From: an uncultured Gammaproteobacteria bacterium
GTDB taxonomy: Bacteria > Patescibacteriota > Microgenomatia > Levybacterales > GWA1-39-11
Direction: 5' to 3'
Length of the DNA: 24,000 bases
Assembly (NCBI GenBank): GCA_964365755.1
Contig: CAYIRD010000001.1
Coordinates: 3,781 to 27,780 of the forward strand
The notes below the pieces were generated by a model. That model saw only the letters and a program-made list of their open reading frames with translations, ran no database searches and was not told the DNA's origin. Each line of letters begins with the position of its first letter. Position 1 is the first letter of the stretch. The translations under genes and the position numbers were made by a program. Positions 1,076-20,676 of the stretch are shown in pieces.

Positions 1076-1111
1076 CCCACAAAGCAAATTAGATTGATAT
1101 AATAAGTACTC

Positions 1112-1140
1112 TTGAACTATAGGCTCAATAATGGTATACT
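1112..1140 (+). promoter_or_regulatory. Sigma70-like promoter for the repeat-protein operon (TTGAAC-17 nt-TATACT)
   Basis: -35 TTGAAC at 1112-1117, a 17-nt spacer, and -10 TATACT at 1135-1140. Only 9 nt separate the -10 from the ATG at 1150, and no Shine-Dalgarno lies between them. This implies a leaderless or near-leaderless mRNA. Confidence 0.4.
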
Positions 1141-1149
1141 CCAGCCACA

Positions 1150-2457
1150 ATGAAAGAGCGTGTCTCTTCTTATGGCTCAGCTTCGGAACAAGCTCAAATT
1201 CCAATTCCCCGCGACAAGCGAGGCAGAATTCAGTGGAGATTACTAAAAGGCGATGTGAATCAGTTAAGAAGTGTGATTGAATTTCATGCTTCTAGTTTAA
1301 TCAGTGAAGGATCCCCGCTGAATAGGGAAGCTTTTAAAAAAGCTGGTCTTCATAGCATTGATGCTGCGATTACTCGATATTATCCAGATGGAATGCTAGG
1401 TTTAAAGATAAACCTCGGATTACAACCCGACAAAAGGCCCAAATCTTATTGGACAAATGAGACAATAGAGGAGGAGACTAGAATTTTTTTGGAAGGTAGA
1501 GCTGAAGGTAAAAATAGGTTAACTCAAAGATTGCTGCAAGGAAACGGAAGGTCAGATTTAGCATCAGCAATAACGAATCATTACCCGGGTGGAATGTACG
1601 TACTTAGAGAGAGACTCGGATATACCAACGAACGAAAACCAGTAGGCTACTGGACTCAAGAGAAAATTGAAGAGGAAGCCAGAGCGTTTTTCGAGCAAGA
1701 AGGAGAGTTAACTCAAAGCCTTTTGTTTCAAAAGGATCGACAAGATTTGAGTACTCAAATTAAACACTATCCGGGAGGAGCCACACAATTAAGAATTAAA
1801 ATAGGAGCAAAAATTTTAAGAAAAAATGGGTATTGGACAGAAGAACAAATAGAAAGTGATACCTCACAATTCTTGCAAGAATATGATGGAATAACAGAAA
1901 ATCTACTCACAATTCATAAAAGACAAGATCTTTTAGGGGCTATTCGTCAGTATTATCCTGGAGGGTTAATAAGATTGAAAGAGAGATTAGGCTTAATCCC
2001 TAAGAATAAGCCTGTTGGATACTGGACTACTGAAAGAATAGAAGAGGAAACCTTAGCTTTTTTGAATCAATTTGGAATACTAACCCCTGGAGAATTAAAA
2101 AAGAATGGAAGGCAAGACTTAATAGGAGCAATAAATGAACACTATCCCGGAGCCTTTACTAAATTGAAAGAACATTTAGGGATCGGGCCGGACAGGAGAT
2201 CTAATGGTCACTGGAGAAATCCTAAAAATGTAGAGGAAGAGGCCCGAATCCTTTTGGACAATGGTTATTCTATAGCAAATAAAGATCTAAGAGCAGAGCA
2301 TTCGGGTTTTATATCCGCTGTTAGGAAATATTATCCGGGAGGCTTAATTGCTTTGAGAGAAAAACTTGGAATTGCGAACGGAGAGAGATTAATTTTAATT
2401 TCTCCGGATGAAGCGAATGAACAATTGAGGAGGCTTTTGGAGGAAAAAGATGAATAA
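1150..2457 (+). CDS. Tandem-repeat protein paralogue 1 (435 aa, 6 repeats) with conserved C-terminal tail ISPDEANEQLRRLLEEKDE; function unknown
   Basis: Long ORF. The repeat-initial Trp falls at aa 29, 101, 168, 229, 292 and 355. The unit consensus is 'GYWTxExIEEEARxF...G.LT...L....RxDL..AI...YPGG...LKE+LGL'. The N-terminal motif is 'PRDKRGRIQW'. Confidence 0.85.
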   Translation: MKERVSSYGSASEQAQIPIPRDKRGRIQWRLLKGDVNQLRSVIEFHASSLISEGSPLNREAFKKAGLHSIDAAITRYYPDGMLGLKINLGLQPDKRPKSYWTNETIEEETRIFLEGRAEGKNRLTQRLLQGNGRSDLASAITNHYPGGMYVLRERLGYTNERKPVGYWTQEKIEEEARAFFEQEGELTQSLLFQKDRQDLSTQIKHYPGGATQLRIKIGAKILRKNGYWTEEQIESDTSQFLQEYDGITENLLTIHKRQDLLGAIRQYYPGGLIRLKERLGLIPKNKPVGYWTTERIEEETLAFLNQFGILTPGELKKNGRQDLIGAINEHYPGAFTKLKEHLGIGPDRRSNGHWRNPKNVEEEARILLDNGYSIANKDLRAEHSGFISAVRKYYPGGLIALREKLGIANGERLILISPDEANEQLRRLLEEKDE

Positions 2458-3799
2458 GGAAAGATCACAAATGACTGGCGAGCAATACTTTTTTTCAGAA
2501 TTACCCCGCAATAGAAGAGGTATCCGCTGGAGCGTTATTCCAGAGGCGAACAGGGAATTAATTATCGAAGGGGAAGCGAGAAAAATATACACTGAGACAG
2601 GAAGATTAAATAAAGGTGCATTTGAAGAGACAGGGAGACAAGATATAATTGGGGCAATTACTCTATATTATCCTGGAAGACTTACAGGTTTAAAGAAAAC
2701 CCTTGGGTTAACTGTACCTGCTACCAGCATACCCATTCAAAGTAGTCAGGAAGAAGATTTTATTGTTAGAGACGCAGGGGGAAGAGTTTTGTGGTCTAAG
2801 ATGGCGCAAGATCAAAGAATGAGGGTAATAGAACAAGAAGCCTTAAGTTTTGTCCAGTCTGGACACTTCACAGATAGTGAACTACGAACAAGAAATTATG
2901 GATTGTTAATGGCTGCAAAAACTTATTACCCTAATGGTATATTAGGTGTTCGAGAAAGGTTAAATTTAAAAGCCAAAAAGACTCCAAAGGGTTATTGGAC
3001 TTTAGAGAAAATAGAAAGAGAAGCAAGAGAGTTTCTTAGTACATATGGAGTAATATCGAGACGTGTTTTGTACCAACATAATCGTGGAGACTTAAGCGAG
3101 GCAGTTAAATCAAAATTTCCAGGTGGTTTTGTAGCGCTAAAAGAGAGACTTGGTGCGGTTCAAGCTAAACCGGGCGGGTTTTGGACAAAAGAAAGAATTG
3201 AACAAGAAGCCCTAGCTTATTATAAAGAGCGTGGTTTTTTAAGCGCAAGACATTTAATAAAAAATGGTCGAGGAGATCTAGCTATGGCAATTTCGCAGAA
3301 TTATCCTGGGAGGATGACGAAACTAAAAGAAGCTCTGGGATTAGACCCATTGCGGAAGGATAATTATTGGACTCAAGAGAAAATAGCAGAAGAGGCAAGA
3401 AAGTTTTACGAAACCGAAGGAGTTTTAACGGCTAAAGCACTGTATAGGATGGGTCGTTCCGACCTGGCATCGCAAATTAGTAGGTCTTACAAAGGAGGAT
3501 ATTTAGCGTTGAAGAGAGAATTGAGAATAGAATTAAGTAAAAGACCTGATGGATATTGGACTCCCGAAGCAATTGAAGCTGAAGTAAGAAATTTTTTAGA
3601 TAATGAAGGGACAATAAGCAGTGGCGTACTACATAGAAAAAAACCAGCCCTATATGCAGCAATAAGGCTTCACTATCCGGGGGGAAAATTAGCGCTTGAA
3701 TCTAAGCTTGGAATTATTAGGCAAGAAACAGAAATGACTGTTTCGCCGGATGAGGCGAATGAACAATTAAGAAGACTTTTGGAGGAAAAAGATGAATAA
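2450..3799 (+). CDS. Tandem-repeat protein paralogue 2 (449 aa, 6 repeats) with C-terminal tail VSPDEANEQLRRLLEEKDE; function unknown
   Basis: The ATG at 2450 overlaps the upstream stop in ATGAATAA, and GGAGG at 2439-2443 lies 6 nt upstream. It has the same repeat consensus, with N-terminal 'PRNRRGIRW'. Confidence 0.85.
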   Translation: MNKERSQMTGEQYFFSELPRNRRGIRWSVIPEANRELIIEGEARKIYTETGRLNKGAFEETGRQDIIGAITLYYPGRLTGLKKTLGLTVPATSIPIQSSQEEDFIVRDAGGRVLWSKMAQDQRMRVIEQEALSFVQSGHFTDSELRTRNYGLLMAAKTYYPNGILGVRERLNLKAKKTPKGYWTLEKIEREAREFLSTYGVISRRVLYQHNRGDLSEAVKSKFPGGFVALKERLGAVQAKPGGFWTKERIEQEALAYYKERGFLSARHLIKNGRGDLAMAISQNYPGRMTKLKEALGLDPLRKDNYWTQEKIAEEARKFYETEGVLTAKALYRMGRSDLASQISRSYKGGYLALKRELRIELSKRPDGYWTPEAIEAEVRNFLDNEGTISSGVLHRKKPALYAAIRLHYPGGKLALESKLGIIRQETEMTVSPDEANEQLRRLLEEKDE

Positions 3800-5657
3800 A
3801 GAATTCGAAGTCAGAACAGACCAACAATTTCAGAATCAGCAATCGTTAGATACTCCTCGAGACAGAAGGGGAAGAATAGACTGGCGCGCTTTAAACAGTA
3901 ATCCGGAACAACTTGTCGCGTATGTAGATTCAGAAATCGAGAGATTTCTTGCCGAGGGCCACCAGTTGTCTTATGTAGGGTTAGTTAAAGGCGAGAGAGA
4001 TTTTCTATACACCGGAGTTAAAAGATATTACCCAGGAGGCATGGATACATTAAAAGAAAAATTTGGGATTGTTAGTGTTACGAAACCAGGGCGGTACTGG
4101 TATGATTCACACAATATTGAGGAAGAAGCGAGAAAGTTGGCAGCAAAGGGTAGCGATTTATCACAACGTAGCCTTAAAGAATTTAGTATGCAATCTATGA
4201 GTTCTGCAGTTAGAAGATACCCAGGAGGTTTGCAAGCCCTTAGAGAAAAATTAGGCATCGCACAAGTAAGAGTTGCTAGAGGATATTGGCAAGTGCCTGC
4301 AAATATTGAGAAGGAGGCAAGAGCATGCCTTGGGAAAGGAATTGATATATCTCAGAAAAGCTTGAAAAAAGCAGGCTTATCCTCATTATCTTCAGCAATA
4401 GCACAAAAATATCCCGGCGGCACGAGCGCTTTAAGAGAAAAATTAGGATTACCAATAAGACGCCCAAATGGATACTGGCAGAATCCGGTAAATGTTGAAC
4501 ATGAAGTTTCAAAAATAATCGATGAAGAGGGAAATTTAACAGAGCCAATAATTAATAGACACAATCCTTCATTGATGCCCGCTATTTATAAACACTATGA
4601 AGGAGGATTGGCTGCGTTGAGAGCTAAATTTGGCCTAAAAGAGACAAAAAAAAAGACAGGATATTGGACAATGGAACAGATAGAATATGAGGCAAGAAAA
4701 TTTTACGAGGAGAGAGGACTATTAACCGGACCGGCTTTGATCACAAACAATAGACAGGACTTGTTGGGGGCTATCCAGAGCAAATACCCAGGAGCTCTGA
4801 TTGGTATTAAAAATAGACTAGAAATTCATTCTGTCAGGCCAAAGGGCTACTGGACACCAGATAACATTGAGAGAGAAGCAGCAAAATTTATAGCTCAACA
4901 TGAAGATTTAAACCATGTTTTGTTAAGGTCCAATAATTTAGCTGGATTCGCTTCTGCAATTTCAAGCTTTTATCCCGGAGGCATGAGAGGTCTACGAAGA
5001 AAACTTGGCTTAGAGGTAAAATCAAGGCCTCTTGAGTTTTGGACAATCGAGAATATAGTAGGAGAAGCAAGAAAAATTTATGAAACTGAAGGAGATTTAT
5101 CGCAAAAAATATTAGTTAGGCTGAGAAATCTTTCTCTTAATTACGCTATTCAAAAGAAGTATCCGGGTGGGATGGATGGATTAAAAAGAGATATAGGGAT
5201 TAGATCTAGCGAAAGACCTAATGGCTATTGGACTCCCGAAACTATTGAACAAGAAGCTAAAAAATTCTATTTAACACACGGGACATTGGACTCAAAAAGC
5301 ATGCGCGGAAAAGGTGAATCTGGCCTTTCATCCGCTATAAGCTCCAAATATCCAGGAGGTTTTAGGGCATTAAAAGGAAAATTCGGGGTTGCGATTAATC
5401 AGCGTCCTCCCAATTATTGGGTTAATCCTGAAAACATCGAACTTGAACTACAGAGATTTCTAGAAGCGGGAAATACATTTTCGGATGAAGATCTCAAAAG
5501 AGCGGGTTTGACAAGCTTGCGGTATGCAATAAGTGAGTATTACCCAGGAGGTATGAGTGCAATAAGAGAAAAGTATGGCCTTACAAAAGGCGAAAGGCAA
5601 GTTGTGATTTCCCCCGATGATGCGAATGAACAATTGAGAAGATTGATTGAAGATTGA
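3792..5657 (+). CDS. Tandem-repeat protein paralogue 3 (621 aa, 9 repeats) with C-terminal tail ISPDDANEQLRRLIED; function unknown
   Basis: It has the same ATGAATAA stop/start overlap and the same GGAGG as the previous junction. There are nine 'YW...YPGG' units and an N-terminal 'PRDRRGRIDW'. Confidence 0.85.
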   Translation: MNKEFEVRTDQQFQNQQSLDTPRDRRGRIDWRALNSNPEQLVAYVDSEIERFLAEGHQLSYVGLVKGERDFLYTGVKRYYPGGMDTLKEKFGIVSVTKPGRYWYDSHNIEEEARKLAAKGSDLSQRSLKEFSMQSMSSAVRRYPGGLQALREKLGIAQVRVARGYWQVPANIEKEARACLGKGIDISQKSLKKAGLSSLSSAIAQKYPGGTSALREKLGLPIRRPNGYWQNPVNVEHEVSKIIDEEGNLTEPIINRHNPSLMPAIYKHYEGGLAALRAKFGLKETKKKTGYWTMEQIEYEARKFYEERGLLTGPALITNNRQDLLGAIQSKYPGALIGIKNRLEIHSVRPKGYWTPDNIEREAAKFIAQHEDLNHVLLRSNNLAGFASAISSFYPGGMRGLRRKLGLEVKSRPLEFWTIENIVGEARKIYETEGDLSQKILVRLRNLSLNYAIQKKYPGGMDGLKRDIGIRSSERPNGYWTPETIEQEAKKFYLTHGTLDSKSMRGKGESGLSSAISSKYPGGFRALKGKFGVAINQRPPNYWVNPENIELELQRFLEAGNTFSDEDLKRAGLTSLRYAISEYYPGGMSAIREKYGLTKGERQVVISPDDANEQLRRLIED

Positions 5658-5682
5658 AACTATAGGTTTAAAATGTTAAAAT
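5654..5682 (+). promoter_or_regulatory. Possible internal promoter for the helicase-methyltransferase gene (TTGAAA-17 nt-TAAAAT)
   Basis: -35 TTGAAA at 5654-5659 overlaps the stop of the upstream gene. A 17-nt spacer precedes -10 TAAAAT at 5677-5682. It shares the string TTGAA(A)CTATAGG with the promoter at 1112. Confidence 0.3.
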
Positions 5683-5683
5683 T

Positions 5684-5703
5684 GGGCTGATTAACAGCCC
5701 TTT
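5684..5703 (+). terminator. Stem-loop GGGCTG-ATTAA-CAGCCC followed by TTT; either a weak intrinsic terminator/attenuator or a 5'-UTR hairpin
   Basis: A perfect 6-bp, GC-rich stem (5684-5689 / 5695-5700) has a 5-nt loop and a short T-tract (5701-5703). It sits in the only intergenic gap of the cluster. Confidence 0.3.
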
Positions 5704-5712
5704 CAATAAAAT

Positions 5713-8700
5713 ATGACATCAGAAATGTTAAAAGAAGGACAGCCACAGCCAGTGCAAGAAAATCACGATTCAAGAATCGCGGATTTGAATGCAGTGATTT
5801 TGAAGCCAGAAAAAATTCATGTTCTATTAAGTTTGAAACCGGGTGACCCCGGATACCCGTTTGATAATGGAGAAACATTTGAAGCAAATTATGAATCCTC
5901 AACCGATTTTGGATTGAAATATATCATGGCTAGATCTCTGCTTCAGGATGGTAAGTATGATAAACCACTTCTATTGCTTAGAAAGTTTATTCCAGCAGCG
6001 GATATAATTACTAAGCATAAAGAAGCTGAGGATCGCCAAAAGGCAGAAGAAGAAATTAAATCCGGCTTTGCCCAGGAATTGAAAGATAGATTACGGCTTC
6101 TACTTGTAGAAAAAGGACAAATTAAGCCTGGATCTGAAGAGGATAAAGATGCCCAGAAGGCTCTTATTCGCTTTGCGGAAAGAGATCAAATCCTAAGACA
6201 ACTAATGGAACTTTTACCTATCCATGTAGTAGGTGCCATCACGAGTGCTCAAATGTTTGAAAACGTAACAGACGAGGAAAAAAGAGAAAAATTACGGTCA
6301 TGGACAACTCGAGCACTCAGGCCCTATCTTGGGGATTTACTTGTTCGTAAACCTCAGGGCGATATTAATTTTCGAGATATTATAACATTGGTTCCTGCAA
6401 AGATTTTCGATGATTGGGATACTGCCACAGCGAATATTGTAAGAGATCACTTTGAAAGACTAGCGATGGGCATGTTCACAGAAAGTGAAGAAGAAGGGTT
6501 TAGTAGGCTGGAGGATGCTTTTAGATCAGAACAATCTGAATCTAAAAGGCAATTTCTGCAAGGGGTTCTTGATGAGTTTAAAGAGATTAGAGATGAAGAA
6601 ATTCCTCCAGTTTTCAAAGATCAAGTCGAGGGCTGGTTTTCCCCCACCTCACCTTTCCCATTGTTTCGTCAAAAATATTTTGTCCATGAATTCAAAAAAA
6701 CTCACAGGAAATTTTTAAACGGTGATACCGGAGCTACAAAAACGGCCTGTGCGGACCTTGCAATGGAGTCAGTTGGTGCCTCGCGCGTAACTATTTTTGG
6801 CCCAGCTAAGGCACGGAACACTTGGCCAAGAGAGGCTCGTAAGATTTACCAAGAGGACGCGCAGCCTGACGTTTTTGCTGTAATAAGCGCAAAGGATTTA
6901 GATAATCCCAGAATTAAGACAGCCAAGCAGGTTTATATATCGAGTGAATTAATGGCAAGAGCATGGTCCAACCCAGAATTGAATGCAACCATGACAGAAG
7001 CAGTCATTACTAATAGACATACAGATGGGATAATTTTAGACGAGTACGATGTTTTTCGTCATCAGAGTGCAAAGTCAACTAAGATGCTAAGGCACCTCGT
7101 AACTCAAATACAAGCTAATAACCAAGAGTTAGTACCAATGATACCTTTGACAGCAACACCTCTTTCATCATCCCTTAAAGATTTAGACATCTCGATGGCT
7201 CTTCTTTACCCTGAACGGTTCGCCTTTCCTAAGAGCAACCAAGATGGTAAATTTACTTTTAGTACTCTTGCTTTGATGGATCCAAAAATCGCTTATTCAC
7301 TTCTTTATGGCGAGCAACTTATGATTCAGTGGAGTCTTGAAGATCTTTTCGGGGAGAAAGCACCAAAACTTGATCCTAAAATAGTAAATCTTGAGATGAC
7401 TGCTTCTCAATATGAAATTTATCAATGGGTGCTTTCCCTACCTATAAGAAATCCGCTTGAGAAAATTGCTATGTTAAGAAGTGTTCTTCTTAATCCCAAT
7501 ATAATTAAAAAAACCATTAGGGAAAAGGGGTTAATACCAGAACCGGTTTATGATCCGGCAAAATTTGGGGAGCACTTGGAAGAGCTTTACAATTCATGGT
7601 GGGAATGGTTTGAAACTTCACCTGATAAATTTGAACCCTTTAGCGCCGACTGGATTGCAAAATTTGGAGATGGTCAATTTTTAATACAATTGTTTTTTGA
7701 TAATCGATTTGCGGATGGAATTGAATCGCTAGTTATGCGATACCCACACATCCGAACAGATTGGCAAGAAGCTAAATTCCCTTCTGTAAAATATGAGGCT
7801 ATCAAAAAGTTTTTGGAAAGAACAATAATTAAAACAGAAGATGGCTATGAATTCAGCCAAAAAACAATGATAGTTTCCCCTTTTCACAAAGAAGGTATTA
7901 CCAGGTGGTTTGATGATCCTTACATTAGACCGGAAGATCTTGATAATGATGCCTGGAGCTTATATGAGATGTTGCGCCTCGATTTTTCTAATTTGCCAAA
8001 TGAAGCATCTATTAACATTGATGGACAGAAATCTTTTTCAGCAAGAGACCGTGCGGCACAGGAATGGCGAGAATCAGGGATAAAGAATAACATAGTAGTT
8101 GCTTCTATGCGGTCAATTTATCAGAGTATGGATTGGGCAATTCGCGATACAGAAGATAATAAAAATATTGAAGCTATGAATGTTATATTCTTAGGCTGGC
8201 CTTGGGGATGGGATGAATTTAAGCAGATGTCTGGTCGTTTCTTGCGTCCTGGTCAAACCAAACCTGTTAATATATATATCTTAGAAACAGAGAACTCGAT
8301 TGACAGAGGGTTTAAAGACTTGGTTAAAATCAAAGACCTTCTATCGCAAATGGCTTTGGCAGGAGTTGAGCTCTCAAAAGAAGATCAAGTTTTTTTCAGC
8401 GACGCAACTTCTGCTAAAAGAATTTTAATCGAACATCCGAAAGTCGGCCAGCTTTTCCTTTACGATGCTTTTGCCAAATTAAGGGGTATGTCGGAAGAGG
8501 AGATGAGAATTGAGCTTGCCAAGGAAATTAACGGCAGAACTTTAGGATCTTGGCTTGCCGAATTTTATCTTGATGAAGGGAATGATGAATATCGAATAGT
8601 TGGAAACAACGCTGAATTAGTGAAAAATGTCGTACTTCGCGAACATCCCGAACATGTATTATCTGTTGGCTCAGGGACTTGTATTTTTGCAAGAAAAATT

Positions 8701-9624
8701 GCAAGAACCGGAATCCCAATAATAATTGATAATCTCGATATCAATCTTGAAGTATTACAGCTTGCCAAACAAAAAAATCCAGAAATAGGCAATGTTCTTC
8801 ATGAGAGTGCCACTAAGATTAGTAAAAGAGACGGAACTTATGATGCAATTGAATGTTCTTTTGTGCTCCCACTGATTAAGTTGGTTGACAATGGTAAAGT
8901 TCCAAACGATGCTACAGGTGCCGATAGAGTTAAGACATTACTTGAGATGAATCGTGTTCTTAAAATAGGTGGAACAGCAGTTCTAACATTTCCTGAAAAC
9001 TCTTTTAACGAGGAGTCTTTTGCGAGGTTTACCAAAGCTTTAACAAGGAATTTTGGTTTTCAAGTTGTTGGTCCAACAGGAGTTAGTTTTGCATCTGATA
9101 TAACTCCTAACAAAAAACTTGGATGGATTATAACTGTGAGAAAAATAAATAAACCGGATCTTTCAAATATAGATTCTGAAGATCTTATGTTCGAGACAGA
9201 CCGCGATAGAATTAGCCGTTATAAAGGCAAAAAAAATGGGGCTACCGTAAAAGTTATCGATTACCCGATTTTTGCGTCTAAGGAATTTAGGATTTATAAT
9301 CCATTAACACGTGAAGTCGCAACAAATAAAACTGATGTTGTTGATAAAATTACAGTTACTCCGCAAGAACTTGTTGAATTAATCAAGCCAAATCTTTCAG
9401 ATAGCCAAAGAGAAATTTGGGTGGAGGCCAGGCGTAAAATTGAAAGAGGACTTGATCAAAACTATTCGTTAGCAGAACAAACATTAGCTAGTATTTTTGC
9501 CCGCAGAAGGTTAGATGCTAGCGTCTGGAGTGATGAGGCAGTTAGAAAAATTCTAGATGCTGAAATAAGAAGACTAGTAAGAACATATCGCACAAGGGAG
9601 GCAGAATATGAGGGAACAATTTAG
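5713..9624 (+). CDS. SNF2-family helicase fused to a class I SAM-dependent methyltransferase (1303 aa)
   Basis: SNF2-like motifs: I 'GDTGATKT' (aa 337), Ia 'VTIFGPAKARNTW', II 'ILDEYDVF' (aa ~441), III 'LTATPLSSSLKDLDISMALLYPERF', C-lobe 'NIDGQKSFSARDRAAQEW', and VI-like 'QMSGRFLRPGQTKPVNIYIL' (aa 838). Methyltransferase motifs: motif I 'VLSVGSGTCIFARKIA' (aa 982), 'YDAIECSFVL', and 'MNRVLKIGGTAVLTFP' (aa ~1078). The ~330-aa N-terminal and ~170-aa C-terminal regions are unassigned. Confidence 0.75.
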   Translation: MTSEMLKEGQPQPVQENHDSRIADLNAVILKPEKIHVLLSLKPGDPGYPFDNGETFEANYESSTDFGLKYIMARSLLQDGKYDKPLLLLRKFIPAADIITKHKEAEDRQKAEEEIKSGFAQELKDRLRLLLVEKGQIKPGSEEDKDAQKALIRFAERDQILRQLMELLPIHVVGAITSAQMFENVTDEEKREKLRSWTTRALRPYLGDLLVRKPQGDINFRDIITLVPAKIFDDWDTATANIVRDHFERLAMGMFTESEEEGFSRLEDAFRSEQSESKRQFLQGVLDEFKEIRDEEIPPVFKDQVEGWFSPTSPFPLFRQKYFVHEFKKTHRKFLNGDTGATKTACADLAMESVGASRVTIFGPAKARNTWPREARKIYQEDAQPDVFAVISAKDLDNPRIKTAKQVYISSELMARAWSNPELNATMTEAVITNRHTDGIILDEYDVFRHQSAKSTKMLRHLVTQIQANNQELVPMIPLTATPLSSSLKDLDISMALLYPERFAFPKSNQDGKFTFSTLALMDPKIAYSLLYGEQLMIQWSLEDLFGEKAPKLDPKIVNLEMTASQYEIYQWVLSLPIRNPLEKIAMLRSVLLNPNIIKKTIREKGLIPEPVYDPAKFGEHLEELYNSWWEWFETSPDKFEPFSADWIAKFGDGQFLIQLFFDNRFADGIESLVMRYPHIRTDWQEAKFPSVKYEAIKKFLERTIIKTEDGYEFSQKTMIVSPFHKEGITRWFDDPYIRPEDLDNDAWSLYEMLRLDFSNLPNEASINIDGQKSFSARDRAAQEWRESGIKNNIVVASMRSIYQSMDWAIRDTEDNKNIEAMNVIFLGWPWGWDEFKQMSGRFLRPGQTKPVNIYILETENSIDRGFKDLVKIKDLLSQMALAGVELSKEDQVFFSDATSAKRILIEHPKVGQLFLYDAFAKLRGMSEEEMRIELAKEINGRTLGSWLAEFYLDEGNDEYRIVGNNAELVKNVVLREHPEHVLSVGSGTCIFARKIARTGIPIIIDNLDINLEVLQLAKQKNPEIGNVLHESATKISKRDGTYDAIECSFVLPLIKLVDNGKVPNDATGADRVKTLLEMNRVLKIGGTAVLTFPENSFNEESFARFTKALTRNFGFQVVGPTGVSFASDITPNKKLGWIITVRKINKPDLSNIDSEDLMFETDRDRISRYKGKKNGATVKVIDYPIFASKEFRIYNPLTREVATNKTDVVDKITVTPQELVELIKPNLSDSQREIWVEARRKIERGLDQNYSLAEQTLASIFARRRLDASVWSDEAVRKILDAEIRRLVRTYRTREAEYEGTI

Positions 9625-10144
9625 CGAACCACTTTCTCCACAAGAAAGAACAAGGCAACTTTTTTCTAAAAACTTTGATGACTTCGCGGAGAATCTTAGG
9701 GGCAAGGTTGTTGTTCTATTGGGAACAGATAAAAAAATTACATTAGATCTGGTTGAAGGATGGAATTTAGAATCAAACATGAAAACACACAAAAACTTTC
9801 TGCAACTTAATCCAGGAGACTGGGAAGCTAGCAGAATACCCATAAGGCAAATGCGTCAATCACTAATTATTGCGAAAGATGGAGACCGGGTTGGTGCATG
9901 TGCCAGAGTAGTTAGGGCTTCTTACTTTGATAATGATCAAGGACAGTTTATTCAAATGCCAAGGGAAGGCGACATTGCCAATTATTTAGGCCTTGGCGAT
10001 AACGAATTAGCAAGGCTGGTCTACATGGATGATTCGGATTCGCTGTATTTGTTACGAGGGGAACAAGGTTCACAAAATATAAGCCCCGATGAGGCAAACG
10101 AACAACTAAGAAGACTTTTGGAGGAAAGAGATAATGAGTCCTGA
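9608..10144 (+). CDS. 178-aa protein of unknown function carrying the shared C-terminal tail ISPDEANEQLRRLLEERDNES
   Basis: GGGAGG at 9596-9601 lies 6 nt before the ATG at 9608. The ORF overlaps the helicase gene by 17 nt. I recognise no domain. The tail is identical in peptide to those of the repeat proteins. Confidence 0.7.
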   Translation: MREQFSEPLSPQERTRQLFSKNFDDFAENLRGKVVVLLGTDKKITLDLVEGWNLESNMKTHKNFLQLNPGDWEASRIPIRQMRQSLIIAKDGDRVGACARVVRASYFDNDQGQFIQMPREGDIANYLGLGDNELARLVYMDDSDSLYLLRGEQGSQNISPDEANEQLRRLLEERDNES

Positions 10145-10556
10145 AGGGAGAAGAAGAGTAGAATTTACATTTAATACAAGACCTGATATTCTTGCTGGTC
10201 GTCTTATTGGAGTACGAATAAGGCTTGGTAATCAATTGGCCGAGATTGTGGGAACAGAGTGGTATCCTGCAGAAGAAAATACGAAAGGGACATATAGGAA
10301 AGTTTATGAATCAGAGCCGGGTACATTAGTCGCTACAGGATATAGAAATTCAGTCTTGCCCTTAGTTGCTGCAAAAGGCGGAGCTTGCGTTCTTATTCGC
10401 GAAATTGAGGTACGAAATCAGGAAGGAAAACTTGAAACTGTAAAAGGGCCTGGAAGAGTTGGAGAAAAATTGGGTTTGAAAAAAGGTGACGCGCGGAATC
10501 TAAGTATGGAAGATCCCCATGATTTAATATTTAGTTTGGTAGAGATCAATCGATAG
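10134..10556 (+). CDS. Truncated DNA-3-methyladenine glycosylase (MPG/AAG family)-like protein, 140 aa
   Basis: It aligns by eye to the MPG family. 'LAGRLIGV...AEIVGTEWY' matches 'LLG..L...GRIVETEAY', 'EPGTL' matches 'KPGTLYVY', 'GGACVLIREIE' matches 'GACVLLRALEP', and 'GPGRVGEKLGL' matches 'GPSKLCQALAI'. It is shorter than typical family members (about 190-220 aa from memory) and appears to lack the C-terminal segment. GGAGG at 10120-10124 lies 9 nt before the ATG. Confidence 0.6.
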   Translation: MSPEGRRRVEFTFNTRPDILAGRLIGVRIRLGNQLAEIVGTEWYPAEENTKGTYRKVYESEPGTLVATGYRNSVLPLVAAKGGACVLIREIEVRNQEGKLETVKGPGRVGEKLGLKKGDARNLSMEDPHDLIFSLVEINR

Positions 10557-10587
10557 GGATTCAATTCAATTAAAAACTAGAGTTGCA

Positions 10588-10824
10588 TTGGGGTTTTTGT
10601 GGTTGACAAAGATTGTATGGATATCATACAATATCCCCATAAATACTACAGTTAATATTTCGATTCCAACGAAATTATATAAAGATGCAAAGAGATTTGC
10701 TGCCGAATATGGATATTCATCAATGAGCGAATTAATTAGGCAAGCTTTAAGAATAGAATTATATTCTGCTCCCGAGCTTGGGAGGAAAGGTAAAGCTCTC
10801 AAGAGAATTAATAAAAATATTTAA
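10588..10824 (+). CDS. Small ribbon-helix-helix (CopG/Arc-like) protein; start codon uncertain
   Basis: 'VNISIPTKLYKDAKRFAAEYGYSSMSELIRQALRIEL' fits the strand-helix-helix RHH pattern. The only in-frame canonical-type starts are TTGs at 10588, 10597 and 10603, upstream of or overlapping the promoter-like element. No ATG or GTG lies near the domain start. Confidence 0.4.
   Translation: MGFLWLTKIVWISYNIPINTTVNISIPTKLYKDAKRFAAEYGYSSMSELIRQALRIELYSAPELGRKGKALKRINKNI
10603..10632 (+). promoter_or_regulatory. Sigma70-like promoter TTGACA-18 nt-TACAAT
   Basis: Consensus -35 at 10603-10608 and -10 TACAAT at 10627-10632. It lies inside the 5' part of the listed 10588 ORF. It could drive the RHH ORF and/or a long ftsZ leader. 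Confidence 0.4.
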
Positions 10825-10831
10825 CAACTTC

Positions 10832-10857
10832 ATTGCGCTTGCAATCAATTTTTTTTT
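10832..10857 (+). terminator. Weak stem (ATTGC-GCTT-GCAAT) followed by a T9 run
   Basis: A 5-bp stem (10832-10836 / 10841-10845) is followed by nine consecutive T at 10849-10857, just after the RHH ORF stop. The stem is short and AT-rich, so the call is tentative. Confidence 0.3.
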
Positions 10858-10876
10858 GTGATAGGATGGGTCGATC

Positions 10877-10893
10877 TTCGAACATTGTTCGAA
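10877..10893 (+). promoter_or_regulatory. Perfect palindrome TTCGAAC-ATT-GTTCGAA 10 nt upstream of the ftsZ ATG
   Basis: 7-bp inverted repeat arms with a 3-nt centre. A possible extended -10 (TGaTAGGAT, 10859-10867) lies just upstream. ftsZ has no Shine-Dalgarno. Confidence 0.3.
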
Positions 10894-10903
10894 TTATTAA
10901 ACA

Positions 10904-11998
10904 ATGTTAATAAAACCTCAGACTACTTCTTTTGCTAAAATTCGTGTAATTGGTGTTGGCGGTGGAGGAGGAAATGCTATCGGTACAATGATCTCTGACG
11001 GACAGATTAACGGTGTTGAATTTATGTCCATTAACACAGATGCCCAAGCACTTCTTAATAATCAGGCAAACATAAAAATTCAAATTGGAGAAAACTTGAC
11101 CCGCGGTCTTGGATCAGGTGGAGATCCTGAAGTAGGCGTTAAGGCAGCTGAAGAGTCTCGCGAAAAAATTAAGGAGATGCTTGAGGGTACAGATATGGTT
11201 TTCTTGACGGCAGGAATGGGCGGCGGAACGGGAACAGGAGCAACTCCCATTATTGCAGAAGTAGCAAAAGACGTAGGTGCACTAACCGTCTCCGTTGTTA
11301 CAAAGCCATTTCTCTTTGAAGGTACACGCAGAATGGTTGCGGCAGAAGAAGGAATAGAAAGATTAAAAGAGAAGGTCGATACATTAATTGTTATTCCAAA
11401 TCAGAGAATTCTTGAAGTGATAGACAAAAAATTGTCCCTTCTTGAAGCATTTAGGGTCGCTGATTCAGTTCTTAATCACGGGGTGCAAGGAATCTCCGAT
11501 TTAATAACTATCCCGGGGTTGATTAACGTTGATTTTGCAGATGTCAAAACAATTATGACAAATGCAGGATCTGCATTAATGGGAATTGGGATTGGAGTAG
11601 GTGAGAATAGAGCGCAATTGGCGGCTAGGCAGGCAACATCCTCGCCGTTACTTGAGGTCTCAATGGAGGGCGCACGTGGAGTTCTCTACAACATTATTGG
11701 GGGAACAGACCTTTCAATGTCTGAGGTCAATGAAGCATCAAAAATTATTGCATCTGCGGCAGATCCCGATGCAAATATTATTTTTGGTGCAACAATTGAT
11801 GAGAATCTTCATGATCAAATCCGCATTACGGTTATCGCAACCGGTTTTGATGAGTCAAGAAGAAAGCTTCAGGAGTTAGTCGAGAAACCGGAAGAGATAT
11901 TGGCAGAAAATGGTGACCAAGGCCCGCCATCAACGTCTCCCGAAGACGAAAAAGAATCAATCTTTGACATCCCCGCCTTTTTACGCCAAAAGAATTAA
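10904..11998 (+). CDS. ftsZ: Cell division protein FtsZ (364 aa)
   Basis: It carries 'GVGGGGGNA', the tubulin signature 'GGGTGTGA', the T7-loop region 'VIPNQRIL', an acidic disordered linker, and the C-terminal conserved peptide '[11 protein letters not shown]'. Confidence 0.97.
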
Positions 11999-12004
11999 TT
12001 TACC

Positions 12005-12295
12005 CTATTTATATTCCCTGCTTGAACCAGAATGTTTGGAGAGTGCAAATAAAATAATAATTTGCTTCTTAGATTCGTCAAAATCCCAGATAATTCGAAG
12101 GTCACCAGTTATCCAGCTGCTCCATTTTTTCCCAAAATTCCGAGTATTTACTTTATGACTTTTTAAGGAAGGATAGAACGGATCGTTTTTTATTAATCTC
12201 AATACTTTTTTCGTCCGTTTTTCAAATTCTTTATTACCCTTAATTATTGATTTATAAGTGGAAGGGAACGTGCTTGCAAAATGGAGAGCGTACAT
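12005..12295 (-). CDS. Type II toxin, RelE/StbE/YafQ-family mRNA interferase-like (96 aa)
   Basis: 'PSLKSHKV...WSSWITGDLRIIWDFDESKKQIIILFALSKH' matches the RelE/YafQ-type pattern. It lies 2 nt downstream of a small RHH-type ORF, the classical antitoxin-toxin order. Confidence 0.75.
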   Translation of the reverse strand: MYALHFASTFPSTYKSIIKGNKEFEKRTKKVLRLIKNDPFYPSLKSHKVNTRNFGKKWSSWITGDLRIIWDFDESKKQIIILFALSKHSGSSREYK

Positions 12296-12297
12296 GC

Positions 12298-12558
12298 TTA
12301 AAGGCTTGCGAGATATCTATCAAGTTCTTCATCAGTTTTGATGGCTGTATATCGTCCATTTTTATAATCTTCCAATCCCTTTGCAATCACTTTTTCGGTT
12401 TCTTCATCTACTAAAGGTATATCTTCGATCTCTTTTTTATATTTTTCGGCAAGGGCAACCTTTATAATTTCGGCCTCAGATAACACACGATATTTGCTTC
12501 TCAAAAAAGCTAACACTTCAGCAAGCTCTGGTGTTTTATTTAATCTTATTTGTGCCAT
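12298..12558 (-). CDS. Type II antitoxin, RHH-type (87 aa from the ATG at 12558)
   Basis: 'MAQIRLNKTPELAEVLAFLRSKYRVLSEAEIIKVALAE' is strand-helix-helix and is followed by an acidic C-terminal region. I chose the ATG at 12558 over the listed 12594 start because a consensus promoter occupies 12566-12594. Confidence 0.7.
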   Translation of the reverse strand: MAQIRLNKTPELAEVLAFLRSKYRVLSEAEIIKVALAEKYKKEIEDIPLVDEETEKVIAKGLEDYKNGRYTAIKTDEELDRYLASL

Positions 12559-12565
12559 GCTACCT

Positions 12566-12594
12566 ATATTAGGGCATTTACTACCTAATGTCAA
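12566..12594 (-). promoter_or_regulatory. Promoter of the toxin-antitoxin operon (TTGACA-17 nt-TAATAT on the minus strand)
   Basis: The reverse complement reads TTGACA (12594-12589), a 17-nt spacer, then TAATAT (12571-12566). Seven nt later comes the ATG at 12558, so the mRNA is predicted to be leaderless. Confidence 0.55.
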
Positions 12595-13934: not shown

Positions 13935-14387
13935 ATGATGCGCAATCAATTGGCTGTCCTGATATTAATAGCTTCTGTAGTTCTCCTAGTTCTACTAGAT
14001 AGAGGCACAAAGGTATCAGATAATTCGGTTAAAACCGAACCCGCCAAAGTCGAACCTATTCAAGGGACTGACTTCAAACAAGTAACGTTGACTGCAAAAG
14101 CCGCAGAGCGGCTCGGGATTAAAACAGTTCCGGTTCGTGAAGAAATATCAGCCAGAACGGACACTCTAAAGCTTGTTGTTCCTTACGATTCAATAATCTA
14201 CGGTCTAAACGGCGAAACATGGGTATACATAAACCCTAAATCTCTTGTTTTCGTTCGGTCTCCGATAAGTATCGACTACATAGTAGGAGATTTTGCGATT
14301 CTCTCTGAGGGCCCAACTTCTGGTACAAAGGTCGTAACAGTCGGAGTAGCACAGCTGTATGGTATAGATACAGGAATTGGGAAATAA
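13935..14387 (+). CDS. Small membrane-anchored periplasmic adaptor-like protein (150 aa), probable minimal membrane-fusion partner of the RND pumps
   Basis: It has an N-terminal TM helix 'LAVLILIASVVLLVLL'. 'AERLGIKTVPV' and the C-terminal 'VGDFAILSEGPTSGTKVVTVGVAQLYG' resemble the ends of HlyD/CusB-type adaptors. The long alpha-hairpin is absent. The gene sits directly upstream of the RND genes. Confidence 0.5.
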   Translation: MMRNQLAVLILIASVVLLVLLDRGTKVSDNSVKTEPAKVEPIQGTDFKQVTLTAKAAERLGIKTVPVREEISARTDTLKLVVPYDSIIYGLNGETWVYINPKSLVFVRSPISIDYIVGDFAILSEGPTSGTKVVTVGVAQLYGIDTGIGK

Positions 14388-14408
14388 CAAAAGAAGATTT
14401 TCTGCCCT

Positions 14409-17400
14409 ATGCAATGGATTATTAGATCGAGCTTAAGACTTCAATTTATCTTACTTATTCTTGCTGCAGCTCTTGTGGTTTTTGGTATCCGGGAACTTCG
14501 GACTATGCCCATTGATGTCTACCCTGAGTTTAATCCGCCGATGGTGAACGTTCAGACTGAAGCCCTCGGGCTTTCCGCAGCGGAAGTGGAAGCTCTTGTT
14601 ACTGTTCCACTCGAGGCAGATCTTCTTAATGGTGTAGCATGGGTTGATCAAATTTACTCTGAGTCGGTCACTGGTCTATCGTCAATTCACCTCATCTTCA
14701 AACCCGGGACAGATCCTATTCGGGCACGTCAAATGGTGCAGGAGCGTCTGACGCAGACGTATGCTTTGCCAAATGTCTCAAAACCTCCCACGATGCTCCC
14801 GCCCCTATCGACCACGAGCCGCGTCATGATGGTTGGACTTTCCTCGGATAAACTTTCCCTTATTGAAATAGGAGTATTGGCCCGCTGGAATATTACGCCC
14901 CGCCTGATGGGGGTGCCTGGAGTTGCTAATGTGGCTATTTGGGGACAGAGAGAGCGGCAATTGCAGGTACAAGTGGATCCGGAGAAATTATATGCTCAGG
15001 GCGTTACCCTTTCACAAGTTATCAAAACAACAGGAGAAGCCTTGTGGTTTTCGCCATTAAGCTTTCTAGAATCATCGTCGCCCGGAACAGCCGGGTGGAT
15101 TGACACTCCCAATCAAAGGCTTGGTATCCAACACGAGCTGCCCATCTCTGAGCCTTCGGATCTGGCACAGGTGGTTCTCGCGGACAACACGGAGTTAAGA
15201 CTCGGTGATGTCGCAAAGGTGGTGGAAGATCATCAGCCGCTCATTGGGGAAGCTATCTTGAAGCGCGGTCCAGGACTTTTGCTCGTCATTGAAAAATTTC
15301 CTGGGGCAAACATAAAAGAAGTTACACGTAGGGTAGAGGAAGCACTTGTTGCCATGCGGCCCGGTCTTACCGGTATAGATATTGATACTACTATTTTCCG
15401 TCCTGCTACCTACATCGAGAAGGCAACTCACAATCTCACCCTGATGTTGCTTGTTGGCACTATGCTTGCGATTTTGGTTTTTTATTTTTTTTTCTTTGAG
15501 TGGCGTATAGCACTCATCAGCGCGGCTTCGATGCTTTTATCATTACTAACAGCAGGGTTCGTGCTTTATCTTCGCGGGACAACTTTCAATACGATGACTC
15601 TTTTGGGATTCATTATCGCAATCGGCGTTGTCATGGACGATGCCGTTATCGGCGTAGAAAATATCTATCGGCGTTTTCATCAGAATGGTAAAAAGAAGCG
15701 TAGCCAGATGTTTGTTACTTCGGTTATTTTAGAAGCGACTAGTGAGTTGCAAGGACCATTAGTTTTCACAACGCTGATGATTCTTCTCACAGTGTCACCA
15801 GTATTTTTTATGCAAGGAGAGTCTGGTGCATTTTTTCAACCATTTGCCACATCTTTTGTGTTGGCAGTCTTGAGCTCTACGATAATTGCTCTTATCTTAA
15901 CCCCAGTATTAAGCCTGACTTTTTCAAGAGCTTTCCTCAAGCGGCACGAATCACCTCTTGTGAGTTGGTTGAACCTAAGCCTGAGGAGACTTCTTGTGCC
16001 GGCTTTTAAGGTGCCGAAACAAACATACATCATAGTCGTTGTCGCCGTTTTTGTAGGTTTGTCAGTTTTACCAACTCTTAGTGTTTCACTCGTTCCAAAG
16101 TTTAGGCAGACAGATCTATTGATCAAATGGGAGGGCCCACCTGGCACATCCCGTCTTGAAATGAGCCGGATTATAAACCAGGCAAGTCAAGAGTTACGGG
16201 AAGTTACTGGTGTCACAAACGTCGGTGCTCATCTCGGGCGAGCCATCACTGGGGATAAAGTTGCCGGAATCAATTCCGCTGATCTTTGGATCAGTCTTGA
16301 TTCTCAAGCTGACCTAGACATAGCAACAAAAAACATTCAGGAAGTAATTGACGGTTACCCCGGGCTTTTTCATCAGGTCCAGACGTACCAACCAAAAAGA
16401 ACGCGAGAAGCACTCACGGATGAAAATGAAACCCTAAGCGTTCGGATTTATGGTCATGATTTGAAAGTTCTTGAAAGACTTGGGAAGGAAGTTAGGAAGG
16501 CAATTTCAGGGATCGACGGTGTAGTTGCCACTGCGGAAGAACCACAAGTCGAGGAACCGCAGGTGCAAATCAAAGTGGATCTTAAGAGAGCTCAAGCTTA
16601 TGGGCTCAAACCAGGCGATATACGTCGACAAGCAACCACATTACTGTCAGGCATCCAAGTCGGCAGTCTTTATGAAGACCAAAAAGTATTTGAAGTAGTG
16701 GTATGGGGCGAACCTGAAATCCGTAATAGCCTTACCGATATTCGTGATCTAATGATTGAAACACCCGCTTTCGCACAAGTGCCTTTGGAGGAGTTGGCAG
16801 AAGTTAGTATCGCGCCTGCTCCAATTATCATTAAACGCGACAGTGTTTCCCGTTTTCTTGATGTTGAAGCTCGTGTGCCTGGTCGTGATCTTGTTTCGGT
16901 CGCGGCTGATATAAGAAGTAAACTCAAGTCAGTCGAATTTCCTCTTGAATACCATATGGAGGTTCTCGGTGCATCTATTGAGAAACAAGCGTCGCGCGCG
17001 CGTATGTTGGTAGTTATCGTTACCGCGGCAGTCGGGATTTTTCTTCTCATGCAGGCAGCCTTTGGTAGCTGGCGTTTGGCAATAGTATCTCTTCTGAGTT
17101 TACCTATGGCGCTTGTGGGGGGTGTTTTGGCAGCTTTTCTAACCGGTGGTATTCTATCGCTCGGTTCACTAGTTGGATTTCTTACAATACTTGGAATTGC
17201 AGTAAGAAACAGTATCTTACTCATCAGTCACTACCAGCATCTTGAGAGACTTGAAGGCCAAACCTTTGGTCCCAAACTCATCCTGCGTGGTACTCGCGAA
17301 CGACTAGCACCAATTCTTGCGACTGCACTCGCATTAGGGCTTTTTCTTCTTCCAGCAGTACTATTTGGTAATATTACTGGGGTTGAGATAGTGCAACCGG

Positions 17401-20610: not shown

Positions 20611-20621
20611 AGGTAAAGATA

Positions 20622-20650
20622 TTGAAAACAGCGTGTCTAGTATGTATAAT
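20622..20650 (+). promoter_or_regulatory. Promoter TTGAAA-17 nt-TATAAT
   Basis: -35 at 20622-20627 and consensus -10 at 20645-20650, 26 nt before the ATG at 20677. Confidence 0.55.
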
Positions 20651-20676
20651 GCAAAAGCTTAACAAATCAACCTAAA

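Follow-up and report, generated by a model that had tools for sequence, protein, structure and literature searches.

In a stretch of DNA from an uncultured, ultra-small bacterium of the Microgenomatia, within the candidate phyla radiation (CPR, or Patescibacteria), the cell-division genes ftsA and ftsZ are separated by 9828 bp. The stretch, called the window below, comprises 24,000 nucleotides of contig CAYIRD010000001.1 (positions 3,781 to 27,780) and derives from the metagenome of Hainich groundwater (well H51, 0.1 µm fraction). Between the ftsA stop at 1075 and the ftsZ start at 10904 lie six open reading frames (ORFs), P1-P6, all in the same orientation as the division genes; this co-oriented cluster had been described in an initial annotation of the window, and its junctions recur in three independent contigs. 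Gene boundaries within P1-P6 overlap in four of five cases, as if translationally coupled, and the six genes thus fit a single operon, referred to here as the cassette. The genes of the locus are given below, with protein lengths in amino acids (aa) and isoelectric points (pI).

2-1075, + strand: ftsA, 3' part, 357 codons in the window; TIGR01174 (E=1.1e-90) and the Pfam families FtsA and SHS2_FTSA
1150-2457, + strand: P1, 435 aa, pI 9.0; six tandem units of ~63 aa and a C-terminal tail, by unit parsing and a unit hidden Markov model (HMM)
2450-3799, + strand: P2, 449 aa, pI 9.6; six to seven units and tail, by unit parsing and unit HMM
3792-5657, + strand: P3, 621 aa, pI 9.5; nine units and tail, by unit parsing and unit HMM
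5713-9624, + strand: P4, 1303 aa; matches to Methyltransf_11, phrog_62 and mad2, with helicase motifs and S-adenosylmethionine (SAM)-binding motifs
9608-10144, + strand: P5, 178 aa; probable remote Mpg/AAG-like domain and C-terminal tail, by family profile and hhalign
10134-10556, + strand: P6, 140 aa; tail-less paralogue of P5 (E=3e-43 to the P5-family profile), apparently the nearer of the two to Mpg/AAG
10904-11998, + strand: ftsZ, 364 aa, intact; TIGR00065 (E=4.7e-133)

Both division genes are intact despite the insertion. The ftsA gene, 429 aa at full length in contig L109, scores 304.4 bits against TIGR01174, above the curated equivalog cut-off of 175.85, and its product aligns with the FtsA of relatives up to the last residues, so the insertion has not truncated it; ftsZ scores 443.9 bits against TIGR00065 (curated equivalog cut-off 295.2), and residues 1-364 of FtsZ align with those of Levyibacteriota and Gottesmanbacteria at 65-74% identity. 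Upstream in L109, the division and cell-wall (dcw) genes stand in the expected order (Mur ligase, mraY, ftsW, murG, ftsA); a 132-aa ORF that belongs to no family (L109 6988-7386, - strand) occupies the usual ftsQ position between murG and ftsA.

A scan for FtsZ in one genome per GTDB species yielded 80 ftsZ loci, and the 31 Patescibacteria-like loci among them formed the basis of statistics on the ftsA-ftsZ gap. The closest loci are those of Microgenomates, namely the Levyibacteriota and Gottesmanbacteria, whose FtsA is 50-64% identical. The gap has a median of 61 bp among the 31 loci and is at most 268 bp in 30 of them; the sole outlier, 1079 bp in a Curtissbacteria genome, holds one unrelated gene for a 290-aa EamA-type membrane protein or transporter (L042 9006-9878), so genes have entered the junction on more than one occasion in this group. 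No homologue of P1-P6, or of a small ribbon-helix-helix (RHH)-like ORF that lies beyond P6, was found in the 80 loci (tblastn, E<1e-5). Since related ftsA-ftsZ loci hold no homologue of the inserted genes, the cassette is, on these comparative grounds, an insertion, and its genes are not ancestral to the junction. The suggestion in the initial annotation that an accessory module had entered this junction is thereby supported: the same genes do not recur in relatives, ftsA and ftsZ are not routinely unlinked in the lineage, and its remark that flanking direct repeats, integrase and transposase are missing was borne out by scans of the window. Its description of the junction as very conserved holds as regards tightness, though the EamA-type gene shows that the junction is not inviolable. 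A junction that is tight in nearly all related loci nevertheless holds 9.8 kb of foreign genes, with both division genes left intact.

Components of the cassette

P1, P2 and P3 are basic proteins made of tandem units with the consensus YWT.E.IE.EA..F....G.L....L...GR.DL..AI...YPGG...L...LG, ahead of the first of which stands an N-terminal (I/L/T)PRDxRGRIxW motif (window 1210-1240, 2500-2530 and 3855-3885); the PRDxRGRIxW motif also occurs in cassettes from other genomes, e.g., on contigs L082 and L090. P2 starts at 2471 in the source gene call, where it has 442 aa. An AlphaFold (AF2) model of P1, built from a 32-sequence alignment with a predicted local distance difference test (pLDDT) score of 85.7, shows units of four helices each and a helix at the terminus, while its predicted template modelling score (pTM) of 0.44 leaves the arrangement between units uncertain. 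The model resembles two uncharacterised siphovirus proteins (E=7e-5 and 3e-3).

P1-P3 have no match in Pfam, PF18780 (HNH_repeat) included, even at E<=10, and searches of PADLOC, Pfam, NCBIfam and PHROGs returned no usable family for P1-P3, P5 or P6. Remote homologues of P3 do match PF18780 (P0067 at 2.7e-19, and also P0076, P0077, P0071 and P0072), along with faint matches to ARID, HTH_Tnp_Tc5 and Tyr_recomb_halo_N. Because homology to PF18780 is transitive through these P3 homologues, the P1-P3 unit appears, at the level of sequence, to be a divergent branch of the uncharacterised HNH_repeat. The two share a period of ~60-63 aa and a common motif skeleton, YW..(x)..E(L/A)..F...G..(P)T/S...L...G...L..AI...(H/YP)GG...(V/L)...LG(L/I); P1-P3 differ in having YPGG in place of HGG, the PRDxRGRIxW N-terminal motif and the C-terminal tail, and in having no HNH nuclease associated with them. 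PF18780 itself has no known structure or function (PMC8078820), and arrays that read DNA would represent both a new repeat scaffold and the first functional lead for the uncharacterised HNH_repeat superfamily. On another contig (L108 8001-14007), a 1003-aa protein with ~15 HNH_repeat-type units (P0057) is encoded near a stand-alone Methyltransf_8/Methyltransf_11 gene; the association of arrays with methyltransferases may therefore extend beyond the SNF2-fused form found in P4.

P4 comprises a helical N-terminal region of no known family (~1-330), an SNF2-type ATPase (~330-900), a class-I SAM methyltransferase (~940-1120) and a C-terminal region of no known family. Its Methyltransf_11 match (38.5 bits) exceeds the Pfam cut-off of 21.2 and its SNF2-rel_dom match (22.6 bits) falls below the cut-off of 24.9; within the family, Methyltransf_11 is matched by 32 of 33 members and SNF2-rel_dom by 19 (best 3.4e-8). 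With the SNF2 motifs defined as I GxxKT, II DExx, III TxTP and VI QxxGRxxRxGQ, the residues of all four (K339, T340, D439, E440, T476, T478, P479, Q834, G837 and R838) are invariant in 33 P4 homologues, as are the SAM-binding residues G982, G984 and D1005, and because of this invariance the ATPase and methyltransferase activities are probably retained. DNA N6A/N4C amino-methyltransferases have (D/N/S)PP(Y/F/W) as motif IV; the corresponding region of P4 reads YDAIECSFVLP, and P4 has no match to N6_Mtase or MethyltransfD12. As judged from its motifs, the methyltransferase is of the Methyltransf_11/UbiE type and not a DNA N6A/N4C amino-methyltransferase. The Methyltransf_11/UbiE class typically methylates RNA-base ring nitrogens, oxygens or carbons, not the exocyclic amino groups of restriction-modification (R-M). 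Further matches are to phrog_62, a 1881-position phage 'DNA helicase' family (5.6e-19 over ~190 residues of helicase lobe 1), and, in PADLOC, to mad2 (1.4e-11, residues 942-1119) and DrmD (E 0.004); P4 alone and a 33-sequence profile gave only weak generic SAM-methyltransferase matches against PDB sequences. The last element of P4, and of every homologue, is a conserved basic amphipathic helix, [IV]xx[SA][ED][IVL]x[RK][ILF]x[RK] (window 9540-9621).

P5 and P6 are 24% identical in the family alignment and have no BLASTP match to one another, their kinship being visible only by multiple alignment and profile searches. When 1.84 billion representatives were searched in full with HMMER, the family came to ~107 members or clusters, all of them small stand-alone proteins; a word-indexed search for homologues, started from an 8-sequence P5 alignment, returned three proteins only. 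Neither P5 nor P6 has a Pfam or NCBIfam match of its own. A relationship to the Mpg/AAG glycosylases (PF02245) is nonetheless likely from a consistent remote signal in four independent sequence tests. The five best matches of a 79-sequence profile against the PDB are all human AAG (E 0.06-0.17), hhalign aligned the P5/P6 family with an Mpg alignment built here (Prob 69%, 116 columns), and an Mpg HMM built here matched 16 of 108 family members at E<=0.01 (best 3.4e-6; P6 1.7e-4; best reversed-sequence control 0.37); 3-methyladenine glycosylase is also the most recurrent family, always below threshold, in Pfam and NCBIfam scans of the members. Read by eye, 'IVGTEWY' and 'GPGRVGEKLGL' of P6 resemble 'IVETEAY' and 'GPSKLCQALAI' of AAG (catalytic Glu E125 and Tyr127 in the human enzyme), so that P6 appears to keep 'TE.Y' and 'GPG..(x)4LG(L/I)'. 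The two proteins differ from Mpg/AAG in length (140-178 aa vs. ~190-220 aa), the P5 branch does not conserve the catalytic Glu and has gained a tail, and an AAG fold is putative for both. The top PDB matches of a P5 model in Foldseek, plant B3 domains at E 0.08, were set aside as not meaningful.

The same C-terminal motif, (I)SPDEANEQLRRLLEE(K/R)D, closes P1, P2 and P3 and also P5, to which they are unrelated; it is absent elsewhere in the window, and the DNA encoding it forms a repeat family of its own (D6).

2404-2451, + strand: DNA encoding the P1 tail (PDEANEQLRRLLEEKD); D6, 92% nucleotide identity to the P2 copy
3746-3793, + strand: DNA encoding the P2 tail; D6 reference copy
5613-5654, + strand: DNA encoding the P3 tail (PDDANEQLRRLIED); D6, 73%
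10085-10132, + strand: DNA encoding the tail of P5, a protein unrelated to P1-P3; D6, 90% nucleotide identity

The tail DNA is 90-92% identical among P1, P2 and P5, as against 60-77% among the repeat units, and the tail is helical in the P1 model (residues 419-434). In each related cassette, the upstream proteins and the P5-like protein carry one common tail, which differs between cassettes:

L089: SPEEANEDLDRLLEG, on five proteins
L085: EEANAQIEALLKD
L091: EEADQDLDKFF
L088: AYxALSxFF / LESYF
L107: PDQADELMRGLEEE, on six proteins

Tail identity, computed from 34 tails of 10 cassettes, is 0.73 within and 0.35 between cassettes (permutation p<=2e-4), and a general pattern at the extreme C-terminus, [ST]P[DE]EA[ND]xx[LIM]xx[LFY][LFI], is predicted to be helical; within the P5 family, most members bear a tail and a minority, including P6, are tail-less. 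That the tail is common within a cassette and differs between cassettes suggests that it is a docking peptide in co-evolution with some partner from its own cassette. The pattern further suggests P4 as this partner, since P4 is the only other constant protein and is kept where P5 is missing (as in L107, with six tailed arrays and a P4-like protein). It is only an idea that the basic C-terminal helix of P4 pairs with the acidic tails by charge complementarity; comparison by eye of tail type (LL or FF/YF) with the P4 C-terminal helix across ~12 cassettes gave no clear pattern of covariation, and none of the longer homologues is a natural fusion of P4 with a tail-bearing partner. A tail that served as a docking tag would amount to a new modular recruitment principle.

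Cassettes in other genomes and in relation to known systems

P4 has ~33 full-length homologues, at 34-53% identity, among 5.8 billion proteins, and the only named one belongs to Candidatus Daviesbacteria. The core of the cassette elsewhere consists of one to five upstream proteins that belong to no Pfam family (six in the distant L107), a P4 homologue and usually a P5-like protein; for six other cassettes, Pfam returned no match to these variable upstream proteins. The flanking genes are different in each genome that carries a homologous cassette, as in the following loci.

L082 (1-20100, Microgenomates-type genome): complete cassette inside an integrative and conjugative element (ICE) beside glmS, amid transfer genes
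L088: cassette beside a tyrosine integrase
L083 (6382-14486): cassette adjoining Fic/MazE, upstream of rpoB
L089 and L094 (4439-14454): cassette between AbiEii and rpsP, upstream of rpsP
L087: cassette adjoining secA
L107 (2998-15086): distant variant with six array proteins and a 1105-aa P4-like protein (22% identity), no P5, upstream of yceG-rpoB

The ICE of L082 has TrbC/type IV secretion system (T4SS) pilins, VirB4 and a TraC-like gene on one side of the cassette and a Replic_Relax relaxase and a coupling protein on the other, with a large serine recombinase adjoining glmS. As P4 is rare and the cassettes lie in differing places, one of them inside an ICE, the cassette is a mobile, accessory operon that moves horizontally among the Microgenomates (CPR), and the copy inside a conjugative element provides a concrete example of gene flow within CPR bacteria. 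None of the homologous cassettes elsewhere is linked to ftsA or ftsZ, and no P4 relative was found among the 2.9 million viral contigs of IMG/VR. Several cassettes lie directly upstream of, and co-oriented with, an essential, highly expressed gene (rpoB twice, in L083 and L107; rpsP in L089/L094; ftsZ here), a placement that could be due to chance in very compact genomes or could be a strategy for retention or expression.

The cassette resembles DISARM in combining an SNF2-type ATPase and a methyltransferase in one operon on accessory DNA, and in the marginal match of P4 to DrmD. It differs in that PADLOC finds no DrmA, DrmB (DUF1998) or DrmC in it and no match for the other five proteins, in that its methyltransferase is a helicase-fused Methyltransf_11 type and not an N6A or C5 DNA methylase, and in that DISARM has no counterpart of its tailed arrays and Mpg-like proteins. 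MADS, a multi-gene system that discriminates by methylation and whose mad2 is a predicted N6-methyltransferase (bioRxiv 10.1101/2023.03.30.534895), is approached by the cassette through the mad2 match of P4; this likeness is confined to the methyltransferase fold, as P4 lacks the N6-methyltransferase motif and the cassette contains no other mad gene (mad1-mad8). Type I and Type ISP R-M systems follow a logic similar to that proposed for the cassette, in which variable subunits for DNA recognition are separate from the translocating ATPase and the methyltransferase and attach to the enzyme via conserved helices; the cassette, however, lacks a nuclease domain, an HsdS target-recognition domain (TRD) and N6_Mtase, and recognition by arrays of 63-aa units would be unlike HsdS. 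The BREX and Type I R-M markers PglZ, BrxC, PglX, HsdR nuclease, HsdS TRD and N6_Mtase were all absent from the Pfam, NCBIfam and PADLOC results. Considered in turn as DISARM, MADS, BREX and Type I R-M, the cassette was rejected as a member of each. Its likeness to these systems, and to the large helicase-methylases of phages and plasmids, goes no further than the joining of a helicase to a methyltransferase.

The large helicase-methylases of phages and conjugative elements (e.g., P1 DarB, phrog_62) likewise hold a methyltransferase and an SF2 helicase in one very large protein on mobile DNA; the P4 match extends over ~190 residues only, the domain order and methyltransferase class differ, and these proteins have no tailed partners. 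DarT-DarG and glycosylase-based defences couple one enzyme that modifies a DNA base with a second that detects the modified base or takes the modification away. The resemblance of the cassette to these would be one of mechanistic analogy only, as there is no sequence relationship. A search of the available literature retrieved no description of the cassette or the tail and no function for PF18780. Five of the six proteins belong to no curated family, and the combination of a helicase-methyltransferase, glycosylase-like proteins and tail-sharing arrays appears in no defence catalogue searched here; the cassette is an undescribed, CPR-restricted operon with a distinctive shared-tail architecture.

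Proposed function and alternatives

The account judged probable on balance is that a horizontally moving six-gene operon, inserted in the ftsA-ftsZ junction, encodes a DNA-targeting conflict system of the 'methylate, then read/excise' kind and not a division module. In this scheme, which is drawn from domain content and conservation, P4 would be the core enzyme, an SNF2-type double-stranded DNA translocase fused to a Methyltransf_11-type methyltransferase; the basic arrays of P1-P3 would bind DNA and would be recruited to P4 via their short acidic, cassette-specific C-terminal helix; P5 would dock by the same helix as a reader of methylated purines; and P6, which has no tail and appears to keep the Glu/Tyr motif, would act as a free glycosylase that processes methylated purines. 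The whole would serve in conflicts over DNA, either as defence or as counter-defence. Conflict is preferred to housekeeping because members of the family are few and their positions change from genome to genome, because an ICE carries one copy, because toxin-antitoxin (TA), Abi or Fic genes adjoin several copies, and because the array genes vary in number and content.

The following points weigh against the conflict system as formulated. The defence role is derived from context, PADLOC having found only the mad2 fold match and the marginal DrmD match. The methyltransferase of P4 is of a generic type, whose target could be RNA, protein or a small molecule. DNA binding by P1-P3 is deduced from charge and remote helix-turn-helix-like matches, and the P1 model has no significant PDB neighbour, the Foldseek matches being generic solenoids at E>0.28. 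All links of P5 and P6 to Mpg/AAG lie below curated thresholds (three of 79 members match PF02245, at E 0.03 or weaker), the catalytic Glu is not conserved in the consensus of the P5 branch, and a 3-sequence alignment gave an AF2 model of P5 that is of low quality (pLDDT 60) and matches no structure significantly. Tail sharing could stem in part from recent duplication, gene conversion or concerted evolution. As to mobility, the window contains no integrase, transposase, relaxase, T4SS, terminal repeats or target-site duplication, no tRNA genes or Rfam elements, and no flanking direct or inverted repeats at the ends of the insert. No closely related empty-site strain is among the genomes compared, the nearest FtsZ being 74% identical. 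Finally, the cassette and the dcw genes do not differ in GC content at third codon positions (GC3; 0.25-0.33 and 0.29-0.35, respectively), so the insertion is either old or from a compositionally similar donor; the latter option fits the report that aquifer Patescibacteria exchange genes mostly among themselves (PMC12455944).

A more far-reaching form of the conflict reading is regarded as unlikely, namely that the cassette represents a new class of DNA-targeting conflict system confined to CPR, in which an SNF2-fused methyltransferase acting on purine ring nitrogens would be programmed by exchangeable arrays of ~63-aa DNA-reading units, attached to it by a cassette-specific C-terminal docking helix, and would work with dedicated Mpg/AAG-like partners that read or excise the methyl marks in a 'write-and-excise' form of immunity or warfare. 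If this were true, the tail would be a portable, co-evolving address tag and the arrays a new modular DNA-recognition scaffold.

Of the competing explanations, the one that fares best, although it too is improbable, holds that the cassette is counter-defence or establishment cargo of conjugative elements (shielding or readying the incoming element DNA, e.g., by protective methylation and DNA coating) and that the copy between ftsA and ftsZ is a stranded remnant. The complete cassette of L082, placed inside an ICE between mating-pair-formation genes and the relaxase and coupling protein, the P4 match to phrog_62 (5.6e-19), the resemblance of the array fold to the two uncharacterised siphovirus proteins and the anti-restriction role of large helicase-methylase fusions, e.g., P1 DarB, all lend it weight. 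Against this, for most cassettes (those of the window, L083, L085, L087, L089, L090 and L107) the surrounding 10 kb hold no T4SS, relaxase or integrase, none was found in the viral contigs, and protection from restriction is given by DNA amino-methyltransferases, whose motif is missing from the methyltransferase of P4.

That the cassette is an accessory for repair or epigenetic housekeeping, such as a specialised alkylation-repair or DNA-marking unit, and takes no part in conflict is distinctly less probable. The Mpg/AAG-like homology of P5 and P6, together with the participation of SNF2 proteins in repair in many organisms, would suit such a unit; a patchy and rare distribution at varying positions, with one copy carried by an ICE and several adjoined by TA, Abi or Fic genes, would not, and the presence of one to six array genes per cassette with cassette-specific tails is typical of fast-evolving conflict genes.

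A host function in division or chromosome handling, which the initial annotation had put forward as the other possibility, is very unlikely. Under this proposal, the nucleoid would be the target of the DNA-binding arrays and the SNF2 motor, for example in occlusion or segregation, and their expression would be regulated together with that of ftsZ. The shared orientation of cassette, ftsA and ftsZ would allow co-transcription, codon composition is the same in the cassette and the dcw genes, and a role of this sort would call for just such components as a DNA translocase and basic arrays of DNA-binding-like character. Yet the cassette is missing from all 31 related ftsA-ftsZ loci, its homologues lie at unrelated positions that differ in every genome and never beside ftsA or ftsZ, one genome carries it inside an ICE, and the family is very rare (~33 P4 homologues, ~107 P5 clusters), so that the proposed tie to division is unsupported. 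An assembly artefact, i.e., a chimeric contig joining ftsA, a foreign cassette and ftsZ, would be conceivable in a low-coverage metagenome (~3-5x in contig names) but has a negligible probability, because the ftsA-P1 junction (murG-ftsA-P1-P2-P3) is reproduced in L109 and L110, from two replicate assemblies, and the right junction (P4-P5-P6-ftsZ) in the separate contig L001, and composition is uniform across the junctions.

Candidate promoters and neighbouring genes

With 9.8 kb inserted behind ftsA, transcription of ftsZ must either start at a promoter outside ftsA or reach the gene by very long read-through. Three features bear on the expression of the insert and of ftsZ:

1112-1140, + strand: promoter-like site TTGAAC-17-TATACT, TG-extended, in the 74-bp spacer before the cassette; a sequence match only, at 9 of 12 consensus positions
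10588-10824, + strand: doubtful RHH-like ORF, 78 codons, TTG start; RHH_1 19.0 bits
10603-10632, + strand: sigma-70-type promoter-like site TTGACA-18-TACAAT, ~270 bp upstream of ftsZ; 11 of 12 positions, the best in the region

Of the two promoter candidates named for ftsZ in the initial annotation, the one at 10603 is thus close to consensus, and the one at 10859 was not recovered by a consensus scan; to go by these matches, ftsZ is presumably transcribed by read-through from the cassette, from the candidate promoter at 10603-10632, or by both. The 10603-10632 site falls inside the RHH-like ORF. The same annotation had counted this ORF among the genes between ftsA and ftsZ; the ORF is present, but its status as a gene is doubtful, as its score lies below the RHH_1 cut-off (20.5 bits) and it was not called in the source contig L001.

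Directly after ftsZ, on the - strand, lies a TA-like pair (12005-12594) that consists of a 96-aa YoeB/YafQ-like ORF (TIGR02116 6e-5, PF15738 5e-5) and an upstream 98-aa ORF that belongs to no family; it is another accessory element beside the division genes. Further downstream, the region 13935-21567 contains two tandem genes for AcrB-type resistance-nodulation-division (RND) transporters (14409-17501 and 17407-20610), preceded by a 150-aa ORF (13935-14387) that resembles an RND adaptor fragment (TIGR01730, 2e-4). Two 296-aa ORFs flank the RND genes and show no paralogy to one another. The RND genes and a 296-aa ORF have a GC3 of 0.41-0.50, compared with 0.25-0.35 in the rest of the window, a difference that suggests a separate, more recent acquisition. 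For a CPR bacterium, presumably devoid of an outer membrane, such pumps are an unexpected find.

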